64,000 nt of DNA from the sequence record MH051913. The stretch is one strand, 5' to 3'. The position numbers and the translations under genes are program-made. Numbering within the stretch: the stretch's first letter is position 1; each line of letters begins with the position of its first letter. Under the pieces are notes generated by a model. The model saw only the letters and a program-made list of their open reading frames with translations. It did not search any database and was not told the origin of the DNA. Of the stretch, positions 2,468-23,379 are shown in pieces. Origin of the DNA: Enterobacteria phage vB_EcoM_IME281.

Positions 2468-3220
2468 TGAAACTAATATCAATTGTAGGAATCAAACGTA
2501 GCGGTAAGGATACCGTTGCTAACTATGTAATTGAGAATATGGATTCCGTAAAATTCCAACTCGCTGGTCCTATTAAAAAGTATCTGGCTGAAGCTTATGA
2601 ATACATATCTGATGACCCTGTATTCGACCGTAGCTATATGCCTAAACTTGATTTTAACTGTTTTGAAGGTATCGGTTACGACCGTGAAGAAATCATTCCT
2701 TTAAAACCATATGATGTGGTTGATATTTTTGAAAATGCTATTGTTAAGCTGAATAATATCCTTCCTATTCCCGGAATTGATGTTCGTACCGCATATCATT
2801 ATGGTCTTACCCCGGTCCAATATCTGTCTGAAGAAACAAAAGACCAGCTATTTGAAGTAATAAATAAAAATAACAATTGGTCAGTACGTCGTCTCATGCA
2901 GACCCTTGGGACTGATATTATTGTTAACCAATTTGATAAGATGTATTGGGTTAAGTTGTTCGCTTTAGACTATTTTGATAAAATATACTCTGATGCGAAA
3001 TACTATGTCGTACCTGATGTTCGTCAAACACATGAAATTGATTCGCTCAGAGCGATGGGTGCTACGATTATTCATGTAGTTCGCGCTGAAACCGGTCAAG
3101 TACAAGACTCGCACATCACTGAAGCGGGTCTACCAATTTTACCTGGTGACGTTGTTGTTGAAAATAACGGCACTCTTTCTGAACTATACACTACTATTGA
3201 TAAATTATTAGGAAATAAAA

Positions 3221-3228
<8 letters not shown>
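2467..3228 (+). CDS. 1: deoxynucleoside monophosphate kinase gp1
   Basis: P-loop GIKRSGKDT near N-terminus; strong similarity to recalled T4 gp1 (QLAGPIK, WSVRRLMQ, MYWVKLFALDY, ATIIHVVR). Confidence 0.85.
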
Positions 3229-4112
<884 letters not shown>

Positions 4113-4153: not shown

Positions 4154-4190
4154 AGGCCTATCAAACCAAACCAACCACATGGAAATCAAA

Positions 4191-7602: not shown

Positions 7603-8220
7603 ATGAAAACTTACAATGAATTTTTGAACGAAAGCGTTCTGAATGAAGCCGGCGTGCGCATGACTAAAGATATGTGGCAAGCTGCTTATGATAAAATTTC
7701 CGGGACTAAAACCACTACCGAGTTCTTTAAAAACGTTTATGATATGTATGGTTTTGATACTAGTAGCCAGAAAGAATATTACAAAGCTTCCAAAGCTTTT
7801 AAAGATATCGTAGCCGGTGGCTCTACTAAGCCTGCTAAACCTGCTAAAGCTCCTGTTGCTAAACCTGCGGCTCAGCCCAAAGTTGCAGCACCGAAACCTA
7901 CACCTAAACCAGAACCTGTAAAAGAAGCTCCTAAATCTAAAATCAAGTTTGACACCAGCACTATAGTTAAAAAATATAACCAACTGGCTTCTTTAGTTTC
8001 TGAAATCGAATCTGAAACTAAACACCTTGTTCGTGAATTCAACGCTCTTCGTAACGGTCAACACATTAACAACCTGGATACCCCAGACCTGTATCGTCTC
8101 TATCTGACGGTTGAAGGCCTTAAGTATACCCAGCCTATGCGCGAAGAAATCAATAACAAACTTCGCCAAGCGGGCCGCATTGCTGGTGACGCAGCACAGT
8201 TCGAAAAGACTCGTAAATAA
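7603..8220 (+). CDS. internal-protein-like, CTS family, with Pro/Ala/Lys-rich linker (205 aa)
   Basis: MKTYNEFLNE|S N-terminus; PAKPAKAPVAKPAAQPKVAAPKPTPKPEP low-complexity linker; late promoter upstream. Confidence 0.6.
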   Translation: MKTYNEFLNESVLNEAGVRMTKDMWQAAYDKISGTKTTTEFFKNVYDMYGFDTSSQKEYYKASKAFKDIVAGGSTKPAKPAKAPVAKPAAQPKVAAPKPTPKPEPVKEAPKSKIKFDTSTIVKKYNQLASLVSEIESETKHLVREFNALRNGQHINNLDTPDLYRLYLTVEGLKYTQPMREEINNKLRQAGRIAGDAAQFEKTRK

Positions 8221-8225
8221 TGAAA

Positions 8226-8245
8226 GGAGACTTCGGTCTCCTTTT
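8226..8245 (+). terminator. rho-independent terminator
   Basis: GGAGAC-TTCG-GTCTCC hairpin plus T run. Confidence 0.65.
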
Positions 8246-8279
8246 AGGGGGTTTAATCTAAAAATAATTTCACAAAGTT

Positions 8280-8308
8280 GTTTACACCTCCTTTAAACAT
8301 GATACTAT
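8280..8308 (+). promoter_or_regulatory. early promoter/stem-loop cassette
   Basis: GTTTAC, 17 nt, TACTAT; core GATACTATAGACCTATCAAAACAACAGAGTGA. Confidence 0.6.
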
Positions 8309-8343
8309 AGACCTATCAAAACAACAGAGTGAAGGAGAGTAAA

Positions 8344-8607
8344 ATGGATAATTATGGTGAATTGTTTAATTTCTTTATGAAATGCGTTCCTGAAGAATTT
8401 GGTGCTACTGTTAACGATATTAAAGTTATCGGTCCTGAACACCCAGTGTATGAAACCTATGCAGTAATGGGTAATGAAGATGGACAGTGGTATACAATTA
8501 AAGTTGTGATTAGTATGTTCTCAGCTGAAGGCTACGCCAAATCGTCTACCAAAGTTTATCATGATAACGATTTTGATGCGGAAGAGTATTTCAATAATAT
8601 GAAATAA
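8344..8607 (+). CDS. hypothetical protein (87 aa)
   Basis: ATG after AAGGAGAG in cassette leader. Confidence 0.5.
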   Translation: MDNYGELFNFFMKCVPEEFGATVNDIKVIGPEHPVYETYAVMGNEDGQWYTIKVVISMFSAEGYAKSSTKVYHDNDFDAEEYFNNMK

Positions 8608-8609
8608 TT

Positions 8610-8639
8610 GTTTACATGGGCTCATGATTAAGATATTAT
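8610..8639 (+). promoter_or_regulatory. early promoter with hairpin
   Basis: GTTTAC then TATTAT; GGGCTCAT/ATGAGCCC inverted repeat around the -10. Confidence 0.5.
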
Positions 8640-8664
8640 GAGCCCATAATTTGAGGAGAACATA

Positions 8665-9063
8665 ATGAATATCGAAGATAAAGAAATGCAAGAGTTGTAT
8701 AATTCATTAACGCCTGAACAACAAAAAGCTGCCAAAGAATTAGAGAAAGCTCTTGCTTTCAACTTGGCAAAAACTGATTGGGCTGCCATGTATGAAGAAA
8801 AAACTAGATTAGAACTTGAAGCTGCTGAGAGAAATGAATGGATTGTCGAAACCAAGATTTCTGATGGTGGTTGCTCTGTTGAGGTGTCAGCTGTAGTTAA
8901 AGGCACTCATGGCGAAAAATCATGGGGTTGGCATAATGAAGCAAACAAACATATTGTTCTCTCAACGTCAAAAACTTATGGCCAAAGGGCTCCTGTATCC
9001 AAAGCTATTATTAAGCAAGCTCAATGGGAAGCCAATGAAATCTGCCTCGCAAAAATGAAATAA
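8665..9063 (+). CDS. hypothetical protein (132 aa)
   Basis: GAGGAG RBS; promoter cassette 8610-8639 upstream. Confidence 0.5.
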   Translation: MNIEDKEMQELYNSLTPEQQKAAKELEKALAFNLAKTDWAAMYEEKTRLELEAAERNEWIVETKISDGGCSVEVSAVVKGTHGEKSWGWHNEANKHIVLSTSKTYGQRAPVSKAIIKQAQWEANEICLAKMK

Positions 9064-9066
9064 AAT

Positions 9067-9096
9067 GTTTACATCCCTCAGAGGACAGGGTATAAT
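9067..9096 (+). promoter_or_regulatory. early promoter with hairpin
   Basis: GTTTAC, 18 nt, TATAAT; GAGGACA/TGTCCTC inverted repeat. Confidence 0.55.
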
Positions 9097-9138
9097 GTCC
9101 TCATGGATTATAAATCTTAATCAACTGAAGGAAATACT

Positions 9139-9732
9139 ATGAACACTTTAAAGAAAATCGTTGAATTCATCCGTTCTAAACTGGGTACTGCAATGGCTCA
9201 GAACCTGTCAATCGAAGACCAATACACCAAAGCTGCTTCTACCCTGATTGATAAGATTACTGAACTCCAGACTGCTCATGTTAAGTCCGTGAATGAAGAA
9301 AAACGTATTCGTGCGTTGGCTAATGAAAAAGACCAGCTTGCTGCTTCTAAAGAACGTGAAATTCGTAAACTGATTGCCGAAGGCGCTGATGTCCAGGTAC
9401 ATGCTAAACTTGGCCTCCTTTATCGTCGTACAGCTACTCAGCTTCGTAAGAAAGCCGATGATTATATCGAAATGCGTAATGAAATTAAACTGAAGGTCAA
9501 GGAACTTGATGACTCTCGTCAAGAACTGGCTGTTAAGCTCGAGTACATCCGTGAAACTCGTAATATGGCTGCCCTTGGTATTGCTACTGCCGATGATGTT
9601 GTTGAAATCGCTGCACTGACTAAGATTGATATTGAAGATACCCTGCTGCGTGTAGAAACGTTTAAAGGCCCACAAGTTGGAATGGATACGACTTCTGCCG
9701 ATATCGACGACTACATTAATTCACTTAAGTAA
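9139..9732 (+). CDS. coiled-coil protein, possible PspA/IM30-like (197 aa)
   Basis: Amphipathic N-terminal helix then long heptad-like charged coiled coil resembling PspA organisation; weak inference. Confidence 0.3.
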
Positions 9733-9739
9733 TGTTACT

Positions 9740-9762
9740 GGGAGACTTCGGTCTCCCTATTT
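9740..9762 (+). terminator. hairpin / weak terminator
   Basis: GGGAGAC-TTCG-GTCTCCC hairpin followed by TATTT. Confidence 0.45.
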
Positions 9763-9780
9763 GGAGGAGAGGAGAATATT

Positions 9781-10323
9781 ATGAGTTTATATGACGACCT
9801 GATATCAAATATTGATTGGTTTAAGCATAGTGGTCTTTCACATGAAACTAATTCAGTTCTTTATAGAATTCGCCAAGACTTAGGTTATTCCAATGATTTC
9901 TTAAGTCGAACAAATAGCCGTGGATACACTAGCAAATTACCTTTTATCTTTGCTTTAGCTGAGGACCTTTCTTTTGCAGAAGCTTTAGAAATTATTGACT
10001 TAAATCTGGGTATTCAACGAGTGGAATTCGCTGGATTATGCTATTCAGTATACGCTTTAAATGAACCGAGTGATTGTAAACAGCTTGTTGATGCTGACGA
10101 TGATTACCATTTAGTATGCTATTTGATGTTAGAAAATGGTGACCACTTTGGTATGGTCGACCGCCGCCCGAGTTATTCGGATATTAAAAATTACGATAAA
10201 GATGAGCTTATTATTTTGGCTAATGAGTATACATCAGAGATTCGAAAACAACAACGGAAGCTTAATCGTTTTATTGCTGAATGTCGCGAATACGCTAAAG
10301 AGGTTCAAAATGGAGCGGCCTAG
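9781..10323 (+). CDS. hypothetical protein (180 aa) with C-terminal FIAEC motif
   Basis: ORF track; C-terminal RFIAECREY resembles FIKEC tails of 10310 and 14739 products. Confidence 0.5.
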   Translation: MSLYDDLISNIDWFKHSGLSHETNSVLYRIRQDLGYSNDFLSRTNSRGYTSKLPFIFALAEDLSFAEALEIIDLNLGIQRVEFAGLCYSVYALNEPSDCKQLVDADDDYHLVCYLMLENGDHFGMVDRRPSYSDIKNYDKDELIILANEYTSEIRKQQRKLNRFIAECREYAKEVQNGAA

Positions 10324-10663
10324 TCTTTCATCACATGTTTATCAATTGACTGAATATGATATTGGTGCCAATTTATTATTAGGGATTGTTACAGCCATGC
10401 TTGGTGGCTTAATTGGCCTGGTAATGACCGTGGTTATGGCTGTAATCGAAGGAGTCACACCTATTGAGATGGGGTTCTATATGATAATCGCTCCGGCAGT
10501 TGTGGCCTATTTTATCCCTGTTGTGTATGATATTTGCCATACAAACGCTTTGAATGCTCCAATCCGTAAGAGATATGCTTTAGAGATGGCTAATTATAAT
10601 GAGTATGTAAATCAAACTAAACGTAATGACCTTGAAATCTTTATTAAGGAATGTAAATCATGA
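10310..10663 (+). CDS. membrane protein (117 aa) with C-terminal FIKECKS
   Basis: M59 of track ORF 10136, AGAGG RBS; two hydrophobic helices; ATGA coupling to next gene. Confidence 0.5.
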   Translation: MERPSLSSHVYQLTEYDIGANLLLGIVTAMLGGLIGLVMTVVMAVIEGVTPIEMGFYMIIAPAVVAYFIPVVYDICHTNALNAPIRKRYALEMANYNEYVNQTKRNDLEIFIKECKS

Positions 10664-10950
10664 ATAAAATTGAAATTGAAATCCCAGAACACAACGACGA
10701 GAAATCTGCAGAAAAGGCTATCTATGCTCTTCTGAATAAAGTGAATACCATCGAACATGAATGTGAAGCTATTGCCGATAAGTATGGTATCCAATTCGGT
10801 ACCGGTGATTATGGTTCAGGCCGTACATATTATCCTGTCGGTTATGAATGCTCCCAGTGGTTTAAAGATGAAATTGAAAACAACGGCGGTGAAGTTGAAA
10901 ATGGTGTCGTTACAGTTGGTGCTTGGGTCTCCTCTTCGGCAATGTGCTAA
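10660..10950 (+). CDS. small protein, WVSSS-C tandem paralog 1 (96 aa)
   Basis: Ends GAWVSSSAMC; first of five tandem paralogs. Confidence 0.55.
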   Translation: MNKIEIEIPEHNDEKSAEKAIYALLNKVNTIEHECEAIADKYGIQFGTGDYGSGRTYYPVGYECSQWFKDEIENNGGEVENGVVTVGAWVSSSAMC

Positions 10951-10959
10951 GGAAACGCT

Positions 10960-11241
10960 ATGATGAATGATTACCGTAAAAATAAAGAGCTGGCTGAAGC
11001 AGTAAATGATATTCATAAAGCTATTCGTCGTGCTGAGGAAATTGCAGACAAATATGAGACTCATTTTAATATATACCCTGCTCGCGGTATGGGCGGTGAC
11101 TATTATTCTCCTGGCGCCCTGAAAGCCGACCTTGCTCACTGGGAAGAATACGGTGAAGCTCAGTACGCTATTGTAAACCAACATGATTACACTACCAGCC
11201 TAGAAAATGGTGGATGGGTATCCTCTTCTTCTGAATGTTAA
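10960..11241 (+). CDS. small protein, WVSSS-C tandem paralog 2 (93 aa)
   Basis: Ends GGWVSSSSEC; shares ADKY motif with paralog 1. Confidence 0.55.
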   Translation: MMNDYRKNKELAEAVNDIHKAIRRAEEIADKYETHFNIYPARGMGGDYYSPGALKADLAHWEEYGEAQYAIVNQHDYTTSLENGGWVSSSSEC

Positions 11242-11250
11242 GGAATTATT

Positions 11251-11448
11251 ATGTCTCGTGAACTAGATTGTGCAATCCGTACTGCCGCGGCGGCTATTGA
11301 AAACGTTATCCAGATTTGCAAAGAAGAACGTGAAGAAGCTGATATCTATATCGATGGTCAACGTGACCTGGAACGTCATATCACGCTTTATAACGGTTGT
11401 ATTACTATTAGTGGTACCTCTTGGGTGTCCTCCTCTTACGAATGCTAA
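11251..11448 (+). CDS. small protein, WVSSS-C tandem paralog 3 (65 aa)
   Basis: Ends TSWVSSSYEC; TAAGGA stop/RBS junction. Confidence 0.55.
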   Translation: MSRELDCAIRTAAAAIENVIQICKEEREEADIYIDGQRDLERHITLYNGCITISGTSWVSSSYEC

Positions 11449-11457
11449 GGAAATAAA

Positions 11458-11667
11458 ATGACTATTGATGAAATTGAAAAACAAATCCGTGAATTAGTAC
11501 GTAAAGGTCAGTCCGTGGCTGACGAAACAGGTCAGCACTTCCACGCCGGCGGCGAAGAATATATTCCAGCTTCTAGTCCGGAATATGGCGATTACGAATG
11601 GGCCCGTGATGATTACGGTATTCCTGAAGGTGAAGGTTTCTGGTTTAGCTCCTCTATGTCTTGCTAA
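11458..11667 (+). CDS. small protein, WVSSS-C tandem paralog 4 (69 aa)
   Basis: Ends GFWFSSSMSC. Confidence 0.55.
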   Translation: MTIDEIEKQIRELVRKGQSVADETGQHFHAGGEEYIPASSPEYGDYEWARDDYGIPEGEGFWFSSSMSC

Positions 11668-11677
11668 GGTGATAAAA

Positions 11678-11902
11678 ATGACTGATATTAATGAATTAGA
11701 AAAAGCGGCACTTGAACTGGCTGCACTGTATAAGAAAGTAAAAGATATGGCTTCTGCTCAGGATTTTGGTGTTGAGCTCGACGATTATGACGGTGAAGTT
11801 CGTCTCGAAGATTGGCTGAATAGTTCTTGTTATGGTGAAGAAGCTGGTCGTACCTTCGTTGCTCGTGCCGATGGTAAAATCTGGTACCCAAGCTCATGCT
11901 AA
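11678..11902 (+). CDS. small protein, WVSSS-C tandem paralog 5 (74 aa)
   Basis: M32 of track ORF 11585; ends KIWYPSSC. Confidence 0.5.
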   Translation: MTDINELEKAALELAALYKKVKDMASAQDFGVELDDYDGEVRLEDWLNSSCYGEEAGRTFVARADGKIWYPSSC

Positions 11903-12123
11903 AATTGAAAAAACGATACATTCGTAAAATAAATGGTCTTCGCGATTATGCCAAAGGTTGGCCACTAAGTATTATTATGGCTGATAGACACCCACGTTAT
12001 AATACTGAGATGACTTATTACAAAAAGTACGATTCATATTGTCGGTCTAAAGCGGGTCGTTTAGATGGTTCTTATGAGGACTATTTTGGTAAAAAACCTA
12101 CTCGTGTTTCGTTAGGAAAATAA
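11896..12123 (+). CDS. hypothetical basic protein (75 aa)
   Basis: ORF track; start unclear. Confidence 0.3.
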   Translation: MLKLKKRYIRKINGLRDYAKGWPLSIIMADRHPRYNTEMTYYKKYDSYCRSKAGRLDGSYEDYFGKKPTRVSLGK

Positions 12124-12153
12124 TTTAACCACATGGATGTGATAGGAGGACTT

Positions 12154-12483
12154 ATGCATAAAGATTCAGTATTCAAATATCTTTTGAAAACAGATAAAGA
12201 ATTCTATATGAATGGGCAAGCTTTCTTGTTCGTTCGTGGTAAACGTGAGATGTTTTACAAATGCGACCTCTCAATGCACCATCATATGTATCACACCCAT
12301 GGCGAGCCTATACTGGGGTTCTCTGGTGACGAAACTAGACGTATAGCTATGTACTACGACCATTTTAAGCTCAATGATTGTGGTGACAACGCTTTGGTCT
12401 GGAATCCATCTTGGCGTCGTTGGGATACGGTAGACAACGATAAATTATTTTTAGAATATTGCAGAAGTGATGTACAGCTCTAA
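12154..12483 (+). CDS. hypothetical protein (109 aa)
   Basis: ATG after AGGAGGA RBS. Confidence 0.5.
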   Translation: MHKDSVFKYLLKTDKEFYMNGQAFLFVRGKREMFYKCDLSMHHHMYHTHGEPILGFSGDETRRIAMYYDHFKLNDCGDNALVWNPSWRRWDTVDNDKLFLEYCRSDVQL

Positions 12484-12526
12484 AAATACGTGTTACTATT
12501 ACCCTACACAAACATGAGGAGAACAT

Positions 12527-12766
12527 ATGTGGTATTACGCTCCGATGTCCGATAAGTCTAATGAACCGGTACGCATTACTCGTGCCAAGTTTAAAAAGAT
12601 TTATGGCTTTGCTTATAAGAAGTCTGATTACGGTGTTCGTTTTGAAGATGCTCACTGTATCAATGATCCTTATGCAGAAGAAATCTCTAATGAGATAATT
12701 CCTATCGTTGAGAGTAATTCCAATGATATGTGGGAATTACATAATACTTACGTTGCCGAAATTTAA
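12527..12766 (+). CDS. hypothetical protein (79 aa)
   Basis: GAGGAG RBS. Confidence 0.5.
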   Translation: MWYYAPMSDKSNEPVRITRAKFKKIYGFAYKKSDYGVRFEDAHCINDPYAEEISNEIIPIVESNSNDMWELHNTYVAEI

Positions 12767-12785
12767 GTTTACTGAGGAAAATATT

Positions 12786-13745
12786 ATGATGCTAGTTATT
12801 GGTTCTCGTGCACTGCACCACGCAGGTCTGATTGAAAATAAGTATATCGAAAATTCTGATTGGGATTTCATTGCCGACCAAGGCTCATGGAACCACTTTA
12901 AAGCTCGGATGTTCGGCGCCCATGTACACGTTGACAATCCTGATGTTCAGGCTTTCAAATGTATGCATAATGGTAAAGAAACCTATTTCGAAGCTTATAT
13001 CGTCCGTGCCCTGACTAATGTACGAGAAATTACCGGTGAGCTCCAAGATGAAGACTACACCTCAAGCTATCGTCTCCTGAAATATGCTGAAAATCATATT
13101 AAAAAGGACCGTCTTACAGGTTTCTATTGGGCGACGCCTGATATCTGTCTGGCTATCAAAACCTCTCATCGTTTCCTGAAGAATAATCCGTTCTTCTTGA
13201 AAACTATGTCCCACATCAAATACCTTCGTAATAAAGGTATCACCCTGAATGAAGAACTCCGGGAAATTATGCTGCAACGTCAAAAAGAAACGTTGAGCTA
13301 TTCCCATCCTAAATTGGATGTAAACAAATCATCGTTCTTTAATGATACCATTTATACGCTAGACCATGACTCCATCCATGAAGCAGTAGCATTGGCAGGG
13401 CGTCCTGCATATACCTTTTATATGAAGGAAGGTTCTGAAGTCATGACCTCTCGTGAGAAGTTCGAGGCTTTGCCTGAAGCTATTAAATTGGCTGGTGTGT
13501 ATGAAGAAACTTGTGTCCTGGCACTAGAACGTTCACAGGTTCCTAATGACTTCAATATTTCACCATCATTAAGTTTCTATATGGCTCTTGAGAAAGTGTG
13601 TACCTCAATCACTTCAGGTTGGTTCCGTGAGTACGCCTGGGAAAACTACCAAGCTGTGGTTAATATGTACAAGACTTTAGGTGAAAACGACTACATCAAA
13701 CGATTCCAAGACAACCATCATTTAATTCGTCCTTTCGAAAAATAA
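12786..13745 (+). CDS. hypothetical protein (319 aa), possible nucleotidyltransferase-like N-terminus
   Basis: GAGGAAAA RBS; N-terminal IGSRAL..DWDF loosely resembles GS..DxD NTase motif with long spacer; weak. Confidence 0.45.
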   Translation: MMLVIGSRALHHAGLIENKYIENSDWDFIADQGSWNHFKARMFGAHVHVDNPDVQAFKCMHNGKETYFEAYIVRALTNVREITGELQDEDYTSSYRLLKYAENHIKKDRLTGFYWATPDICLAIKTSHRFLKNNPFFLKTMSHIKYLRNKGITLNEELREIMLQRQKETLSYSHPKLDVNKSSFFNDTIYTLDHDSIHEAVALAGRPAYTFYMKEGSEVMTSREKFEALPEAIKLAGVYEETCVLALERSQVPNDFNISPSLSFYMALEKVCTSITSGWFREYAWENYQAVVNMYKTLGENDYIKRFQDNHHLIRPFEK

Positions 13746-13757
13746 TTGCACAAAACA

Positions 13758-13786
13758 GTGTACAAGGTCTATAGGTGTGATACTAT
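13758..13786 (+). promoter_or_regulatory. early promoter/stem-loop cassette
   Basis: GTGTAC, 17 nt, TACTAT; GGTCTATAG/CTATAGACC inverted repeat; near copy of 4125-4153. Confidence 0.55.
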
Positions 13787-13823
13787 AGACCTATCAAAAC
13801 AACAGAGTGAAATGGAGAATAAA

Positions 13824-14039
13824 ATGAAACTTTCTAACCAAGCAATCAACATGTTAAACGAAGTTCGTGCAGCTGGTGCTAAATGCCTGATGGTTAACAC
13901 TCGTGACGGTGACCTTCGTCAAGCATTTGGTGAATTGAAATCTGCTGACCTGGTTAAATGTTCAGTTGGTATTGGTAACGCACTTCGTGTATCCTTATCC
14001 CCTAAAGGTAAAATGTACTTTTCAACAAAAAGTAAGTGA
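13824..14039 (+). CDS. hypothetical protein (71 aa)
   Basis: ATG after GGAG in cassette leader (TGGAGAATAAAATG). Confidence 0.5.
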   Translation: MKLSNQAINMLNEVRAAGAKCLMVNTRDGDLRQAFGELKSADLVKCSVGIGNALRVSLSPKGKMYFSTKSK

Positions 14040-14049
14040 GGAAAATATT

Positions 14050-14739
14050 ATGAACGGCCCGAAAACTTTTAATTCTCAAGCTCGTGCAGTCGGTGGTTTT
14101 GCTCAAGATATCAGTAATGATATGATTAAAAATGAGCCTATGTTCTTTAATTGTGATGCTTATTTTGCTCATAAACACGGCGGTCCTATTACTCGTAGCT
14201 TTATTGAAAACCTGCCTGAAGATTGGCAATGTGGCCCTGATATTGTATTTGATTCCCGTGTACACATGTTAATGCCTGGCTGGTACCCTGCAATTCCAGG
14301 CTTCCACCATGATGATGTACCACGCCCGGATATTCCGGTCGGTCAACACTTTATTACCGCAGGGCAACCTGATTATGATAATCCTCGTTACCATTCTGAA
14401 CATATTCTTGGTCTTGTTAACGCTGATGTGTGTCCTACCCATTTTGCAACCGGAACTGCACAGTTCAGTCGGATTCCTGAAGGCGAACTTATCTATCGCC
14501 AGTGGCATAAAGAAGTTCTGGAAAAAATTGAGTCCAATGAATTAACCAAGTGGGATGCTCCTGACCGCACGTTACTCCAGTTTGATTGGCAGACATGGCA
14601 TACAGGTTCTCGTGCAGTAAGTAATGGGTGGCGCTGGTTTGGTCGTGTGTCTCGTAATACAGACCGTGTTAAAAAGATTACAAATGAAATCCGCGTTAAT
14701 GCTCAAGTATATCTGGAATTCCCTATGGAGGGCTGGTAA
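14050..14739 (+). CDS. hypothetical protein (229 aa), His-rich motifs
   Basis: GAGGAAAA RBS; FHHDD and HSEH motifs could indicate a metal-binding fold; weak. Confidence 0.45.
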   Translation: MNGPKTFNSQARAVGGFAQDISNDMIKNEPMFFNCDAYFAHKHGGPITRSFIENLPEDWQCGPDIVFDSRVHMLMPGWYPAIPGFHHDDVPRPDIPVGQHFITAGQPDYDNPRYHSEHILGLVNADVCPTHFATGTAQFSRIPEGELIYRQWHKEVLEKIESNELTKWDAPDRTLLQFDWQTWHTGSRAVSNGWRWFGRVSRNTDRVKKITNEIRVNAQVYLEFPMEGW

Positions 14740-15326
14740 TGGCCCTTTATGAACCTGGTTGTATGGGTATTGATACAAACTTCATCCGTCGGTCGGAAAA
14801 TGCTGGAATTATTATCCCAAGTGGTGAGACTATGATTATTAAAAAGTCCTGGCGAAATATAGATGACGGTGATGAAGGAATTTCAGCCAGTACAATAGAT
14901 TGGTCAGGTTGTACTGCCGAAATGAAACAGCTTTTAATTGAGGAATATAAAATGGGCTATATCGTAAACGGCTGGCAAGCGGAACCACATAAAGAACAGA
15001 CTCCAGACCCATTGATTTGTTATAGCAAAAAATACGGCTTCCGTGCATGGAGTGATGAATACGACAAATTGGTGAGTTCTAGATTCTATGTTTGGATGGG
15101 TATATTATTTTTCCCACTCCTAGGGTTTTTCCTGACAACAGATAATGACCTGCCTATTTGTGTATTCGCTTCAGCGATGTCTGCTGCTATCTTAGGTCTT
15201 ATCGCATCATTTTTATGGACATCGGTTATCGAAGTACCTTTTCGTATTTCTAAAGTTAAAAAGGTATATGATGATATCACTAAGAAAAATACATTAAACT
15301 CTTTTATTAAGGAATGTCGTAAATGA
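14739..15326 (+). CDS. hypothetical protein with C-terminal membrane segments and FIKECRK tail (195 aa)
   Basis: ORF track; C-terminal module shared with 10310 product. Confidence 0.5.
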   Translation: MALYEPGCMGIDTNFIRRSENAGIIIPSGETMIIKKSWRNIDDGDEGISASTIDWSGCTAEMKQLLIEEYKMGYIVNGWQAEPHKEQTPDPLICYSKKYGFRAWSDEYDKLVSSRFYVWMGILFFPLLGFFLTTDNDLPICVFASAMSAAILGLIASFLWTSVIEVPFRISKVKKVYDDITKKNTLNSFIKECRK

Positions 15327-15559
15327 GCATTGCAATTTATATTAAATCTGAGTCATGTGATTCATATCTATATTCCTATGATACCGGAACATCAGAAGAG
15401 AAAATTAAAGAAGACTTAGAAAGCGATATGGATATGTTCTGTCCTATTGGTGACTATATGCTTCAAGTGTCTGATAGTGAAAGTCCATCATCAGAAAATA
15501 GACTTCAAATTATTATGCAAGATATTTTTAAACAATCATGGGAACGAGACGATGGGTAA
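15323..15559 (+). CDS. hypothetical acidic protein (78 aa)
   Basis: ATGA overlap with upstream gene. Confidence 0.45.
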   Translation: MSIAIYIKSESCDSYLYSYDTGTSEEKIKEDLESDMDMFCPIGDYMLQVSDSESPSSENRLQIIMQDIFKQSWERDDG

Positions 15560-16001
15560 GAAAGCTAAGGAATTATCGGCAGGTATTTTATTCATGACCG
15601 TTGATAAAGAACTGGTCATGGGCCGTGTAACAGGCTCTCGTAATCCAGAGAACATGCGTCATAAATGGGACATTCCTAAAGGTCATGTCGAACCAGGCGA
15701 AGAGCCTATTCAAGCGGCAATGCGTGAAACCGAAGAAGAGATTGGATTCACAGCATACGATCCTGCATTCCTGAAAGACCTAGGTGAGTTCAAATATTCA
15801 AGCAATAAGAATCTACATCTGTTCTTATATACAGTGCCTGTGGAACACGAGCAGTTCAAGGATTGCAAATGTACGGCTTACCATACGTTCCCTGATGGTC
15901 GTACTATTCCTGAATTCGATGCGTTCGCCTTGATTAAACGTCCGCAATGGGAATATGTCATGGGTAAGTCGATGTTTAAGGTTTTAGATTCGCTCTTTTG
16001 A
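15552..16001 (+). CDS. nudE: Nudix hydrolase
   Basis: Nudix box GHVEPGEEPIQAAMRETEEEIG; position immediately upstream of lysozyme as T4 nudE; M36 of track ORF. Confidence 0.8.
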   Translation: MGKKAKELSAGILFMTVDKELVMGRVTGSRNPENMRHKWDIPKGHVEPGEEPIQAAMRETEEEIGFTAYDPAFLKDLGEFKYSSNKNLHLFLYTVPVEHEQFKDCKCTAYHTFPDGRTIPEFDAFALIKRPQWEYVMGKSMFKVLDSLF

Positions 16002-16009
16002 TATAAATA
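16002..16009 (+). promoter_or_regulatory. late promoter TATAAATA for gene e
   Basis: Exact consensus 23 nt upstream of ATG 16032, followed by ACCTCCT/AGGAGGT inverted repeat that covers the SD. Confidence 0.6.
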
Positions 16010-16031
16010 CCTCCTATACTCAGGAGGTATT

Positions 16032-16526
16032 ATGGATATTTTTGATATGTTACGTCAAGACGAAGGTCTTGATTTAAATCTTTATAAAGACACTGAAGGT
16101 TATTGGACTATTGGTATTGGCCAGTTAGTTACCAAGAACCCATCTAAAGATGTTGCTCGTGCTGAACTTGATAAGCTTATGGGCCGAGTTTGTAATGGTC
16201 GTATTACTATGGCTGAAGCCGAACAACTCTTTAACCGATCGGTTGAAAATGCTCGTAGAGCTATTCTGCGTAATCCTAAATTGAAACCTGTTTACGATGT
16301 ATTGGACGAAGTTCGTCGTTGTGCTTTAATTAACATGGTCTTCCAAATGGGTGAAGCAGGTGTAGCAGGGTTCACTAACTCTTTACGTATGCTCCAACAG
16401 AAACGTTGGAACGATGCGGCAGTTAACCTGGCTCAATCCCGTTGGTATAAACAAACCCCTAATCGTGCTAAGCGCGTGATTTCAACATTTAAAACAGGTA
16501 CTTGGAAAGCATATGAAAACTTATAA
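16032..16526 (+). CDS. e: endolysin (T4 lysozyme e)
   Basis: 164 aa; [56 protein letters not shown] near-collinear with T4 lysozyme. Confidence 0.95.
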
Positions 16527-16911
16527 TGAATTTATCGCAGAGAATGTAGTTCCTGCATCTAAAGAACTTCTGGCGATGTTTGAATCAGAAGAATTCACCG
16601 AAGAACTGAACGAGAACCTGACCCAGGCCACTCCTCAGGTTATTCGCGTTCGTAATGCCCTTCAGACTGGCATGCAGGCTCGTGTATCTAAGACTATGAA
16701 GCTGGCATTCACTACTTCTAAGAACGAAGACTATGGCGATGGTATCGCTATGAACACCGGACAGTATTATGTTGAGTGGAATGGCGAAACCGGTACTGCT
16801 AAGATTCGTCAGACACGTGCCGCTGGTGGCAAAATGCTGGACGTTAAATTGAACGTTAAAGAGAAAGACGTCGCAGCTTTGTTTAAGAATTGGATGAAAA
16901 CTTACAAATAA
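16513..16911 (+). CDS. internal-protein-like, CTS family (132 aa)
   Basis: [10 protein letters not shown]|N N-terminus; at the T4 ipIII/ipII locus beside e and denV. Confidence 0.6.
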
Positions 16912-16940
16912 GTTTACTTCTCCTGTAGGCATGATACTAT
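16912..16940 (+). promoter_or_regulatory. early promoter/stem-loop cassette upstream of denV
   Basis: GTTTAC, 17 nt, TACTAT; CTCCTGTAG/CTACAGGAG inverted repeat includes the SD. Confidence 0.65.
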
Positions 16941-16969
16941 AGACCTATCAACTACAGGAGATTAAAAAA

Positions 16970-17386
16970 ATGACTCGTATCAACCTTACCTTAGTATCTG
17001 AATTGGCTGACCAACACTTAATGGCTGAATATCGTGAATTACCACGTGTTTTCGGTGCAGTTCGTAAGCATGTTGCTAACGGTAAACGTGTTCGTGATTT
17101 TAAAATCAGTCCTACTTTTATCCTTGGCACAGGCCATGTTACATTCTTTTACGATAAGCTCGAATTTTTACGTAAGCGACAAATTGAGCTTATAGCCGAA
17201 TGTTTAAAACGTGGTTTTAATATCAAGGATACTACGGTCCAGGACATTAGTGATATTCCTCAGGAATTCCGTGGTGATTATGTTCCTCACGAAGCTTCTA
17301 TCGCTATTTCACAAGCCCGTTTAGACGAAAAAATTGCACAGCGCCCTACCTGGTACAAACATTATGGTAAGGCTATTTACGCTTAA
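16970..17386 (+). CDS. denV: endonuclease V (pyrimidine dimer DNA glycosylase)
   Basis: 138 aa; [28 protein letters not shown]... near-identical to recalled T4 DenV. Confidence 0.9.
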
Positions 17387-23322: not shown

Positions 23323-23351
23323 GTTTACTTCCTCTAGGAACGTGATACTAT
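23323..23351 (+). promoter_or_regulatory. early promoter/stem-loop cassette
   Basis: GTTTAC, 17 nt, TACTAT; core GTGATACTATAGACCTATCAACTA. Confidence 0.6.
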
Positions 23352-23379
23352 AGACCTATCAACTAATGAGGAGAACAGT

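Follow-up and report, generated by a model that had tools for sequence, protein, structure and literature searches.

C-terminal amphipathic helices such as those of MinD and FtsA are short, basic-ended peptides that target or dock proteins at the cytoplasmic face of the inner membrane. In T-even phages, the closest described case of a short terminal peptide on diverse proteins is the capsid-targeting sequence (CTS; MKTYQEFIAE…), the only conserved part of the otherwise diverse internal proteins (PMC3012670). This peptide is N-terminal and its demonstrated function is targeting to the prohead core. It is removed by proteolysis. At the DNA level, hyperplastic regions of T4-type genomes contain PeSL elements (an early promoter with a stem-loop), short conserved sequences at gene boundaries that form the edges of swapped modules (PMC2839356, PMC4122927). 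Here we describe a conserved peptide with the core FIxECR at the C-terminus of three proteins of Enterobacteria phage vB_EcoM_IME281 (sequence record MH051913). The analysis covered a stretch of 64,000 nt of this record, and "the window" denotes that whole stretch, not the feature under study. We refer to the peptide as the tail and to the proteins that bear it as carriers.

Like the CTS, the tail is a short conserved terminal peptide on diverse, fast-evolving T-even accessory proteins of variable loci (for the CTS, PMC3012670), and in both cases short nucleotide repeats at gene ends arise from the common peptide. It differs in being C-terminal with a predicted docking role, and its carriers are membrane and cytoplasmic proteins, not known virion components. 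With MinD/FtsA-type helices and with C-terminal recognition tags it shares the format of a short, partly amphipathic, basic-ended C-terminal peptide on diverse proteins; however, there is no sequence similarity to those helices, the amphipathicity of the tail is modest, and its membrane carriers are already anchored by transmembrane segments (TMs). As with PeSL, the tail is found where swapped modules of such hyperplastic regions end, but PeSL elements are a non-coding promoter and terminator conserved as DNA, whereas the tail is coding and conserved as a peptide. The nearest counterparts by locus are the uncharacterised T4 ORFs e.2 to e.5, of which the genes studied here are orthologues or positional equivalents.

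Three proteins share a C-terminal peptide of the T-even e.2 to e.5 genes

Over positions 9700-15600 the window shares 97% identity with Escherichia phage AnYang and 90-96% with IME08, JS98, JS10 and Bp7, all members of Dhakavirus (Straboviridae), and the phage is thus a Dhakavirus of the JS98/AnYang-like T-even type. An earlier note, made from the letters of this DNA, had claimed that a C-terminal motif, FI[KA]EC[KR], is shared by the products of three genes, here called ORF1, ORF2 and the e.2 homologue (Table 1), and both coordinates and sequences were confirmed. The six-frame translation of the window contained exactly three matches, all in real genes, at nt 10270 (ORF1, 11 aa from the stop), 10640 (ORF2, 1 aa) and 15303 (e.2 homologue, 1 aa), against a chance expectation of about 0.001 in the proteome given its amino-acid composition. 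The looser core F[IV]..C[RK] was found in the same three ORFs only. The earlier note had let its proposal depend on conservation in orthologues, and the motif was invariant in every orthologue recovered: 27/27 ORF1 homologues retain RFIx[ED]CREYAK, all 12 ORF2 (e.3-like) homologues, down to 51% identity, end in FIKECKS, and FI[EK]ECRK closes each of the 30 e.2 homologues, whose identity goes down to 38%. In the e.2 alignment, whose mean column identity is 66%, the tail residues F, I, E, C, R and K do not vary.

Family matches and gene positions were used to assign the three genes. The e.2 homologue matched phrog_2203 (E = 1.5e-70) and T4 e.2 itself (BLASTP, E = 1.4e-15), Pfam PF26896 (Phage_T4_Y06M) is precomputed on all 30 of its homologues, and only o78 stands between it and nudE; by family match and by its position just upstream of nudE, we assign it to the T4 e.2 family. 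A conserved 31-residue N-terminal extension of this protein (MALYEPGCMG…) is omitted in some annotations (164-aa versions, JS10, VR7). ORF2 matched phrog_2330 (E = 1.9e-44), and its tail-less body matched T4 e.3 by BLASTP (E = 4.6e-7). An exhaustive HMMER search of 1.84 billion proteins with the ORF2 family retrieved 8 clusters in total, all phage e.3-like apart from one spurious large protein, among them the T4-e.3-like representative P0075 (E = 3.6e-6); this search did not reach e.2 or e.4. Full-length similarity, two TMs and the tail identify ORF2 as a homologue of T4 e.3. ORF1 lies directly downstream of e.6, as T4 e.5 does, and its extended tail F[IV]xECREY[AV]K is common to T4 e.5 and ST2 e.5, with F, E, C, R, E, Y and K invariant in the alignment. 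The tail-less ORF1 body gave no BLASTP match to T4 e.5 at E < 1e-3 and was not similar by BLAST to ST2 e.5 either. Apart from its own family, phrog_8788, ORF1 gave only a weak match (E = 0.0033) to phrog_2607, a family of unconfirmed relation to T4 e.5.

In T4, e.5 ends in …EKFVKECREYVKAITIPSK (containing KFVKECREYVK), e.4 in …MKFVKESRCKSQS (the variant KFVKESRCK) and e.3 in …KEFVIDCRKIK. T4 e.2 (T4 locus 3153-3461) is a 103-aa truncation without the second TM and the tail, and the downstream o78 gene is also missing. T4 and the window further differ in that the window has no e.4 gene and the ORF1 body is not detectably similar to T4 e.5. These observations show that the three proteins share a conserved C-terminal peptide that is a common feature of the T-even e.5/e.4/e.3/e.2 gene set. 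The sources searched record no function or shared motif for T4 e.2, e.3, e.4 or e.5. Scans of the three proteins and their neighbours with Pfam, NCBIfam, PADLOC and PHROG returned function-unknown families only (none from NCBIfam), and Rfam found nothing in window positions 8000-17000. Membership in a known anti-phage defence family was considered and dropped, since the one PADLOC match, PDC-M48A for ORF2, had E = 0.0016 and contained no stretch that passed by itself.

The earlier note had called the three carriers unrelated. ORF2 and e.2 aligned by BLASTP over the second TM and the tail (E = 5e-5), and hhalign comparisons between the three window families gave matches confined to the last 27-41 columns, with probabilities of 76%, 80% and 9%, the ORF2/e.2 pair scoring 76%; ORF1 shared just the last ~27 residues. 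"Unrelated" is thus a fair word for the e.5-type bodies but overstates the distance between the membrane carriers, which have probably diverged as tandem paralogues.

The wider distribution of the tail was followed in nine Straboviridae genera, namely in the window and in e.6-anchored loci from eight further phages of distinct genera. In each of the eight further loci the gene after e.6 bears the tail, as do up to five more tandem genes, and in all nine genera the tail (h-E-x-F-[IV]-x-x-C-R-+) closes one to six tandem genes between e.6 and nudE; these include Mosig-like, Jiaoda-, Winkler-, Karam-, Biquarta-, Ishiguro- and Pseudoteven-virus loci. The core motif occurred in 22 of the 80 ORFs between e.6 and nudE compared with 2 of 548 ORFs elsewhere in the same loci, always within 25 residues of the C-terminus. 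Klebsiella phage LilPanda has a 107-aa ORF between nudE and the lysozyme gene (10881-11204) that ends with the tail (…LELFIAKCRGINTPIN), and carriers are thus not strictly confined to the e.6-nudE interval. Aligning 29 tails, we found F (27/29) or W at position 0, preceded by E at -2 and by L, I, V or another hydrophobic residue at -3, and followed by I or V at +1, often K at +2, often E at +3, C at +4 (23/29) and R (26/29) or K at +5, which gives the consensus [LIV]-E-x-F-[IV]-x-(E)-C-R-(K/+).

The bodies that carry this peptide are dissimilar. Soluble carriers measure ~180-290 aa and have the motif 5-25 residues ahead of the stop, and membrane carriers measure ~100-195 aa, most with two predicted TMs, and have it at the very end. 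Without their tails the bodies fall into at least eight groups not linked by BLAST, and 30 carrier proteins match 25 PHROG families; families with the tail are annotated only as hypothetical or uncharacterised. Searches of open-access text for e.3, e.4, e.5 and motif strings found no description of the motif, and within that literature the conservation of this tail on many dissimilar T4-like accessory proteins is previously unreported.

Constraints on the peptide and on the DNA of the tail

Codons of the tail vary between copies (TTT/TTC, ATT/ATC/ATA, GTT/GTG/GTA, TGT/TGC and all six Arg codons), even within one genome, since the ST2 tails ENFIKECRK and ENFIKECRGK differ at synonymous sites. 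This free synonymous variation indicates selection on the peptide, and we conclude from it that a short C-terminal peptide is kept by purifying selection independently of the protein body. Of the two alternatives of the earlier note, that of a functional C-terminal tag has good support, within the limits of sequence evidence, from orthologue conservation, from recurrence on many unrelated bodies in nine genera and from the synonymous variation, and the tail is probably such a protein tag and not a DNA recombination signal.

The earlier note had also reported that the last two genes are identical at the nucleotide level across the gene junction. The 15-mer TTTATTAAGGAATGT is indeed present twice in the window, at 10640 and 15303, but beyond it the registers differ (TGT AAA TCA TGA in ORF2, TGT CGT AAA TGA in e.2), and the AAATGA included in that report is not a common block. 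Nor does the 15-nt identity stand out, being one of 34 exact repeats of at least 15 nt in the window; codon usage alone, given that both peptides read FIKEC, yields P ~0.05. Comparison of the junctions in relatives recovered the peptide and the resumption of homology at the tail; the e.2 DNA of sister phages reads TTTATTGAGGAATGC and the 15-nt identity is gone. In IME08, QL01 and VR5 the e.2 tail is TTTATTGAGGAATG[CT] (also given as GAGGAATGC), so that only the AnYang-like lineage has the identity with the ORF2 tail. This 15-nt identity would result from identical residues, AT-rich codon bias and an AAGGAA Shine-Dalgarno (SD) sequence, and is most likely not a DNA element of its own.

That SD sequence belongs to the next gene. 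As the earlier note had pointed out, the ribosome binding site and start of the following gene are embedded in the tail codons: at both junctions AAGGAA stands 8 nt ahead of an ATG that overlaps the stop as ATGA. The arrangement is that of coupled overlapping ATGA genes with the SD in the upstream coding sequence, and it is general among terminal tails, defined as those with at most three residues after the motif (all others being internal). An SD-like 4-mer lay inside the motif in 9/14 terminal tails versus 3/16 internal ones (Fisher p = 0.024), and three further terminal tails supply AGGA through an AGG Arg codon. With the next start 14 nt away, the free positions spell an SD through different residues (KE as AAGGAA, EE as GAGGAA, KG as AAAGGA and RS as AGGAGC). 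These data show that where the tail ends a gene, its free positions (x-x, or Arg as AGG) double as the SD of the next overlapping gene.

Genome comparisons placed the tail at the border of exchanged DNA. Relative to QL01, both flanks of the e.2 segment 14975-15302 are 96-100% identical and the segment itself 24-60%, and identity with QL01 and VR5 rises to 92-100% exactly at the TTTATT of the e.2 tail. Alleles of the e.2 N-domain and of its TM segment occur in differing combinations among relatives. In QL01 and in a metagenomic contig, the divergence of ORF2 begins at its start and extends to within ~60-100 nt of its stop. The tail thus borders an exchangeable membrane cassette on its 3' side, exactly in e.2 and closely in ORF2. 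Neither chimeric queries nor IUPAC patterns (e.3-tail|o78, e.2-tail|W1) revealed a recombinant: the 57 and 84 related phage records had none, and no chimeric tail junction was found in IMG/VR, where the positive control gave 8 normal junctions. An apparent extension of a match into the ORF2 pre-tail region in Bp7 was discarded as a recombinant, being merely BLAST extension. The described PeSL features (a sigma-70-like early promoter with a stem-loop terminator, non-coding and conserved as DNA) were found at neither junction. Junction 10640-10663 gave only a 9/12 promoter-like match, in a region whose total is at shuffle level (25 found versus 27 expected), junction 15303-15326 gave none, and neither had a terminator-like site. 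Elsewhere, a promoter-like motif (GTGATACTATAGACCTATCAA…) recurs at window 8298, 13777, 16926-16938, 23342-23352 and 57576, with up to 34 nt identical between 8300 and 13778, and a stem-loop (GGAGACTTCGGTCTCC) is repeated at 8226 and 9741; these recurrent motifs and stem-loops resemble the PeSL-type regulatory cassettes of T4-like hyperplastic regions.

Two explanations based on nucleotides were weighed against selection on the peptide. According to one, which corresponds to the "recombination-competent junction module" of the earlier note, tail, ribosome binding site and ATG form a conserved DNA linker through which cassettes are shuffled by homologous or microhomology recombination, as PeSL do in T4-type hyperplastic regions. 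The sharp return of identity at the e.2 tail, the similar divergence of ORF2 up to a short distance from its stop, the recombined e.2 alleles, the conserved island that the tail forms with the first ~65 nt of o78 amid variable segments and the 15-nt identity between the two junctions of this phage are all in keeping with such a linker. However, almost all synonymous sites of the tail DNA vary between paralogues and between genera, the 15-nt identity is lost in IME08, QL01 and VR5 and is matched by many window repeats, neither chimeric junctions nor PeSL-type signals were detected, and several further mosaic patches and indels are not bordered by a tail. Among these are the loss of W3 (11251-11448) in QL01 and in a metagenomic contig, the loss of a 75-aa ORF (11896-12123) in VR5 and in that same contig, and short divergent patches at 9950-10050 in ORF1 (versus QL01) and at 14050-14250 at the start of the 229-aa ORF. 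A place at the edge would be no less expected if the tail were just the closest stretch kept by selection, and the simplest reading is that homology resumes at a selectively conserved peptide-coding stretch. We therefore regard a DNA module as unlikely; what stands of that claim is its weak sense, that the tail borders the exchanged membrane allele, exactly in e.2 and nearly in ORF2, and what falls is conservation as DNA, together with any restriction of mosaic breakpoints to tails. The other explanation takes the motif as a mere by-product of overlapping translation signals, that is, of the SD, spacer and ATG of the coupled gene. It would fit the AAGGAA shared by both window junctions, the excess of SD-like 4-mers in terminal tails and the K/E alternation at position 3 in e.2 orthologues (AAG/GAG), which retains a purine-rich SD. 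But an SD limits only 4-6 purines, so that translational coupling accounts for the purine-rich middle of the motif and cannot fix the variably encoded F, I/V, C and R, and 13/16 internal tails, 4-25 codons from the stop, keep the motif without any SD-like sequence. As sole cause, the by-product explanation is largely refuted by the internal tails, and we hold it to be very improbable.

Predicted role of the tail and its candidate partners

The best explanation of a peptide conserved on such different bodies is, in our view with reasonable probability, that the tail acts as a common cytoplasmic docking or assembly peptide. Membrane carriers have two TMs followed by a K/R-rich C-terminus, and this segment after the second TM is predicted, by the positive-inside rule, to place their tails in the cytoplasm, which would be the compartment of the soluble carriers as well. 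There the tail would form a short helix through which diverse carriers dock or assemble at the inner face of the membrane, tied by this common motif to one partner or to one another, much as the CTS unites the diverse internal proteins of T-even phages. On a helical wheel, L(-3), F(0), I/V(+1) and C(+4) fall within a 100-degree arc on one helix face, and AlphaFold2 predicted a helix at the tail with low confidence. Two-TM carriers would probably have arisen by tandem duplication, and e.5-type bodies would have kept or acquired the same tail; the peptide stays under selection while the bodies diverge or are swapped. Several points weigh against this proposal. The AlphaFold2 models are poor, with pLDDT of 48 for ORF1 and 55 for e.2 and below 50 for the e.2 tail itself, and amphipathicity was clearly above shuffles in only 3 of the 8 tails tested. 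In 6/29 tails I, V, M or S stands in place of Cys, which would be compatible with a plain hydrophobic as well as a thiol-specific role. In avDM1 and Miller the tail occurs on the e.5-position protein only, so that a soluble carrier need not pair with a membrane carrier, and in Aeromonas phage 65, which has two soluble carriers, soluble-soluble pairing is possible. Docking is a predicted function, and its partners are candidates.

Two other accounts of the peptide would give its residues a more specific task. In one, the conserved Cys beside Arg/Lys would be what matters in the tail, for example by bridging subunits through a metal, by acting as a disulfide or redox switch, or by being covalently modified. 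Cys is kept in 23/29 tails and followed by Arg or Lys in 29/29, e.4-type tails shift it by two positions instead of losing it (FVKESRCK, FVKEIRCK), and the neighbouring W-family also has an invariant C-terminal Cys. One clade, however, has I or M in its place (FIRGIRS, FIQGIRGTR, WIKEMK) and another V (FVKEVRRK), replacements that fit a hydrophobic helix face better. In addition, E. coli has a reducing cytoplasm, and one Cys in each tail makes an incomplete metal site; a thiol-centred function is thus quite improbable. In the other, the tail would mimic the cytoplasmic amphipathic helix of SecE/Sec61-gamma and dock on the host Sec translocon, which is a candidate partner because the tail resembles the beginning of the SecE surface helix. 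In the PDB, the tail profile matched best to the N-terminal surface helix of M. jannaschii SecE, NQKIEQLKEFIEECRR (E = 0.025-0.03), and the best local hhalign match in E. coli SecE was FAREAR(TEV) 71-79, which we take from the SecE signature to be the equivalent helix. Against this, the match in E. coli SecE lacks significance (E = 0.33-0.44, probability 0.1-0.2%), a PDB search with the e.5-type tail profile did not recover SecE, and the likeness spans only 6-7 residues; among the 25 of 37 Pfam families listed at E <= 10 for the 30 carriers there is no SecE, and every listed family is matched by a single carrier. SecE mimicry is a most improbable account. Membership of the carriers in the SecE/Sec61-gamma family was likewise rejected, its only signal being the 16-residue match to M. 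jannaschii SecE (E ~0.03), with no support from the Pfam families listed, from hhalign to E. coli SecE or from the e.5-type profile.

For a docking peptide at the membrane, a second candidate partner is the e.6 protein. Its gene, with tblastn matches in 1109 phage records, adjoins the tail genes in all the genera sampled, lying directly upstream of the tail-bearing e.5-position gene in each of the nine. The e.6 profile gave weak end-to-end, co-linear matches to Vipp1/IM30 structures (query 1-140 versus 1-142; PDB E = 0.3-2), Pfam PspA_IM30 was found at E = 0.0095 in one of nine homologues, hhalign to E. coli PspA gave 2%, and one GenBank record names e.6 "shock protein A". Matches of this strength did not establish e.6 as a PspA/Vipp1 homologue, and it was kept as a lead: e.6 may be a phage PspA/ESCRT-III-like protein. 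Taken to its widest extent, the proposal would make the tail a portable cytoplasmic docking peptide that defines a hitherto unrecognised T-even multi-protein system. A single soluble e.5-type protein and a varying complement of two-TM proteins, with membrane segments exchanged as hypervariable cassettes, would be recruited to one inner-membrane partner (e.6 or Sec) and act in host takeover, exclusion or counter-defence at the membrane; we consider this rather unlikely as a whole. A capsid-targeting role for the tail, considered from the "FIAE" within the CTS, was set aside, the likeness covering four residues only and membrane carriers being implausible as capsid cargo.

Organisation of the block and its significance

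Gene order in the block, taken from annotated relatives, is e.8, an unnamed ORF (8665-9063), e.6, ORF1 and ORF2, then ~4 kb of small ORFs, the e.2 homologue, o78 and nudE, followed by lysozyme e (16032-16526), an internal-protein-like gene (16513-16911) and denV (Table 1). The start of ORF2 at 10310 is backed by 117-aa homologues and by alignment with the T4 e.3 N-terminus.

Table 1. Coordinates in the window of the tail-bearing genes, their tails and the adjoining genes.
Feature	Position	Strand	Remarks
e.6 homologue	9139..9732	+	74% identity to T4 e.6; annotated e.6 in IME08
ORF1, e.5-position gene, 180 aa, soluble, phrog_8788	9781..10323	+	C-terminus …RKLNRFIAECREYAKEVQNGAA
ORF1 tail motif L-N-R-F-I-A-E-C-R	10261..10287	+	11 codons from stop; no SD-like sequence within
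SD AAAGAGG and ORF2 ATG (10310)	10296..10312	+	inside ORF1 codons A-K-E-V…
ORF2, T4 e.3 homologue, 117 aa, two TMs, predicted N-in/C-in	10310..10663	+	end …NDLEIFIKECKS
ORF2 tail motif FIKECK	10640..10657	+	AAGGAA 10646-10651 = SD of next gene; ATG 10660 overlaps stop (ATGA)
W1, translationally coupled to ORF2	10660..10950	+	phrog_899; first of five W[VF]SSSxxC-ending paralogues
e.2 homologue, 195 aa: N-terminal soluble domain, two TMs, tail	14739..15326	+	end …NTLNSFIKECRK
e.2 exchangeable membrane-segment cassette	14975..15302	+	24-60% nucleotide identity to QL01 and VR5
e.2 tail motif FIKECR	15303..15320	+	AAGGAA 15309-15314 = SD of next gene; ATG 15323 overlaps stop (ATGA)
o78, coupled to e.2	15323..15559	+	first ~65 nt and tail = conserved island between two variable segments

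Between ORF2 and the e.2 homologue, five tandem small paralogues lie on the plus strand (10660-10950, 10960-11241, 11251-11448, 11458-11667 and ~11679-11902). Their C-termini read W[VF]SSSxxC* or WYPSSC*, the final residue being Cys, and each stop is followed by a TAAGG SD for the next gene. This W-family provides the block with a second conserved C-terminal motif. W1, the sole copy scanned, belongs to phrog_899, a function-unknown family; homologues of the W-family neighbour carrier genes in the Serratia, Cronobacter and ST2 loci, but not in T4. Larger conserved ORFs also lie between the tail-bearing genes: one at 12786-13745 with DUF7277 and DUF7275 (E = 6e-27 and 3e-77) and homologues in the Serratia, Cronobacter and ST2 loci, and one at 14050-14739 encoding a 229-aa protein of phrog_1843 with a homologue in the ST2 locus. 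The CTS itself is present in the window, where six plus-strand genes (starts 3903, 4191, 4417, 7603, 16513 and 17429) begin MKTY[QNS]EF[IL][TAN]E and differ in their remainders; these gene starts account for the 23-26-nt repeats at 4188, 4414 and 17438.

Although the T4 e.2-e.8 block has been sequenced for decades, its genes are still called "hypothetical". One peptide motif now joins ~25 PHROG families of soluble and membrane proteins from nine genera into a single testable group of orphan genes: one tail peptide can be used as partner bait, and one set of F, C and R point mutations can probe all members. At a single junction, three layers of constraint meet, namely peptide function, an embedded SD and start, and the edge of a recombining cassette, and such a coincidence of constraints can mimic a "DNA module". 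If the tail does dock hypervariable membrane cassettes to a common partner, the e.2 to e.5 proteins would provide, at the membrane, a parallel to the arms race of the CTS and the internal proteins.

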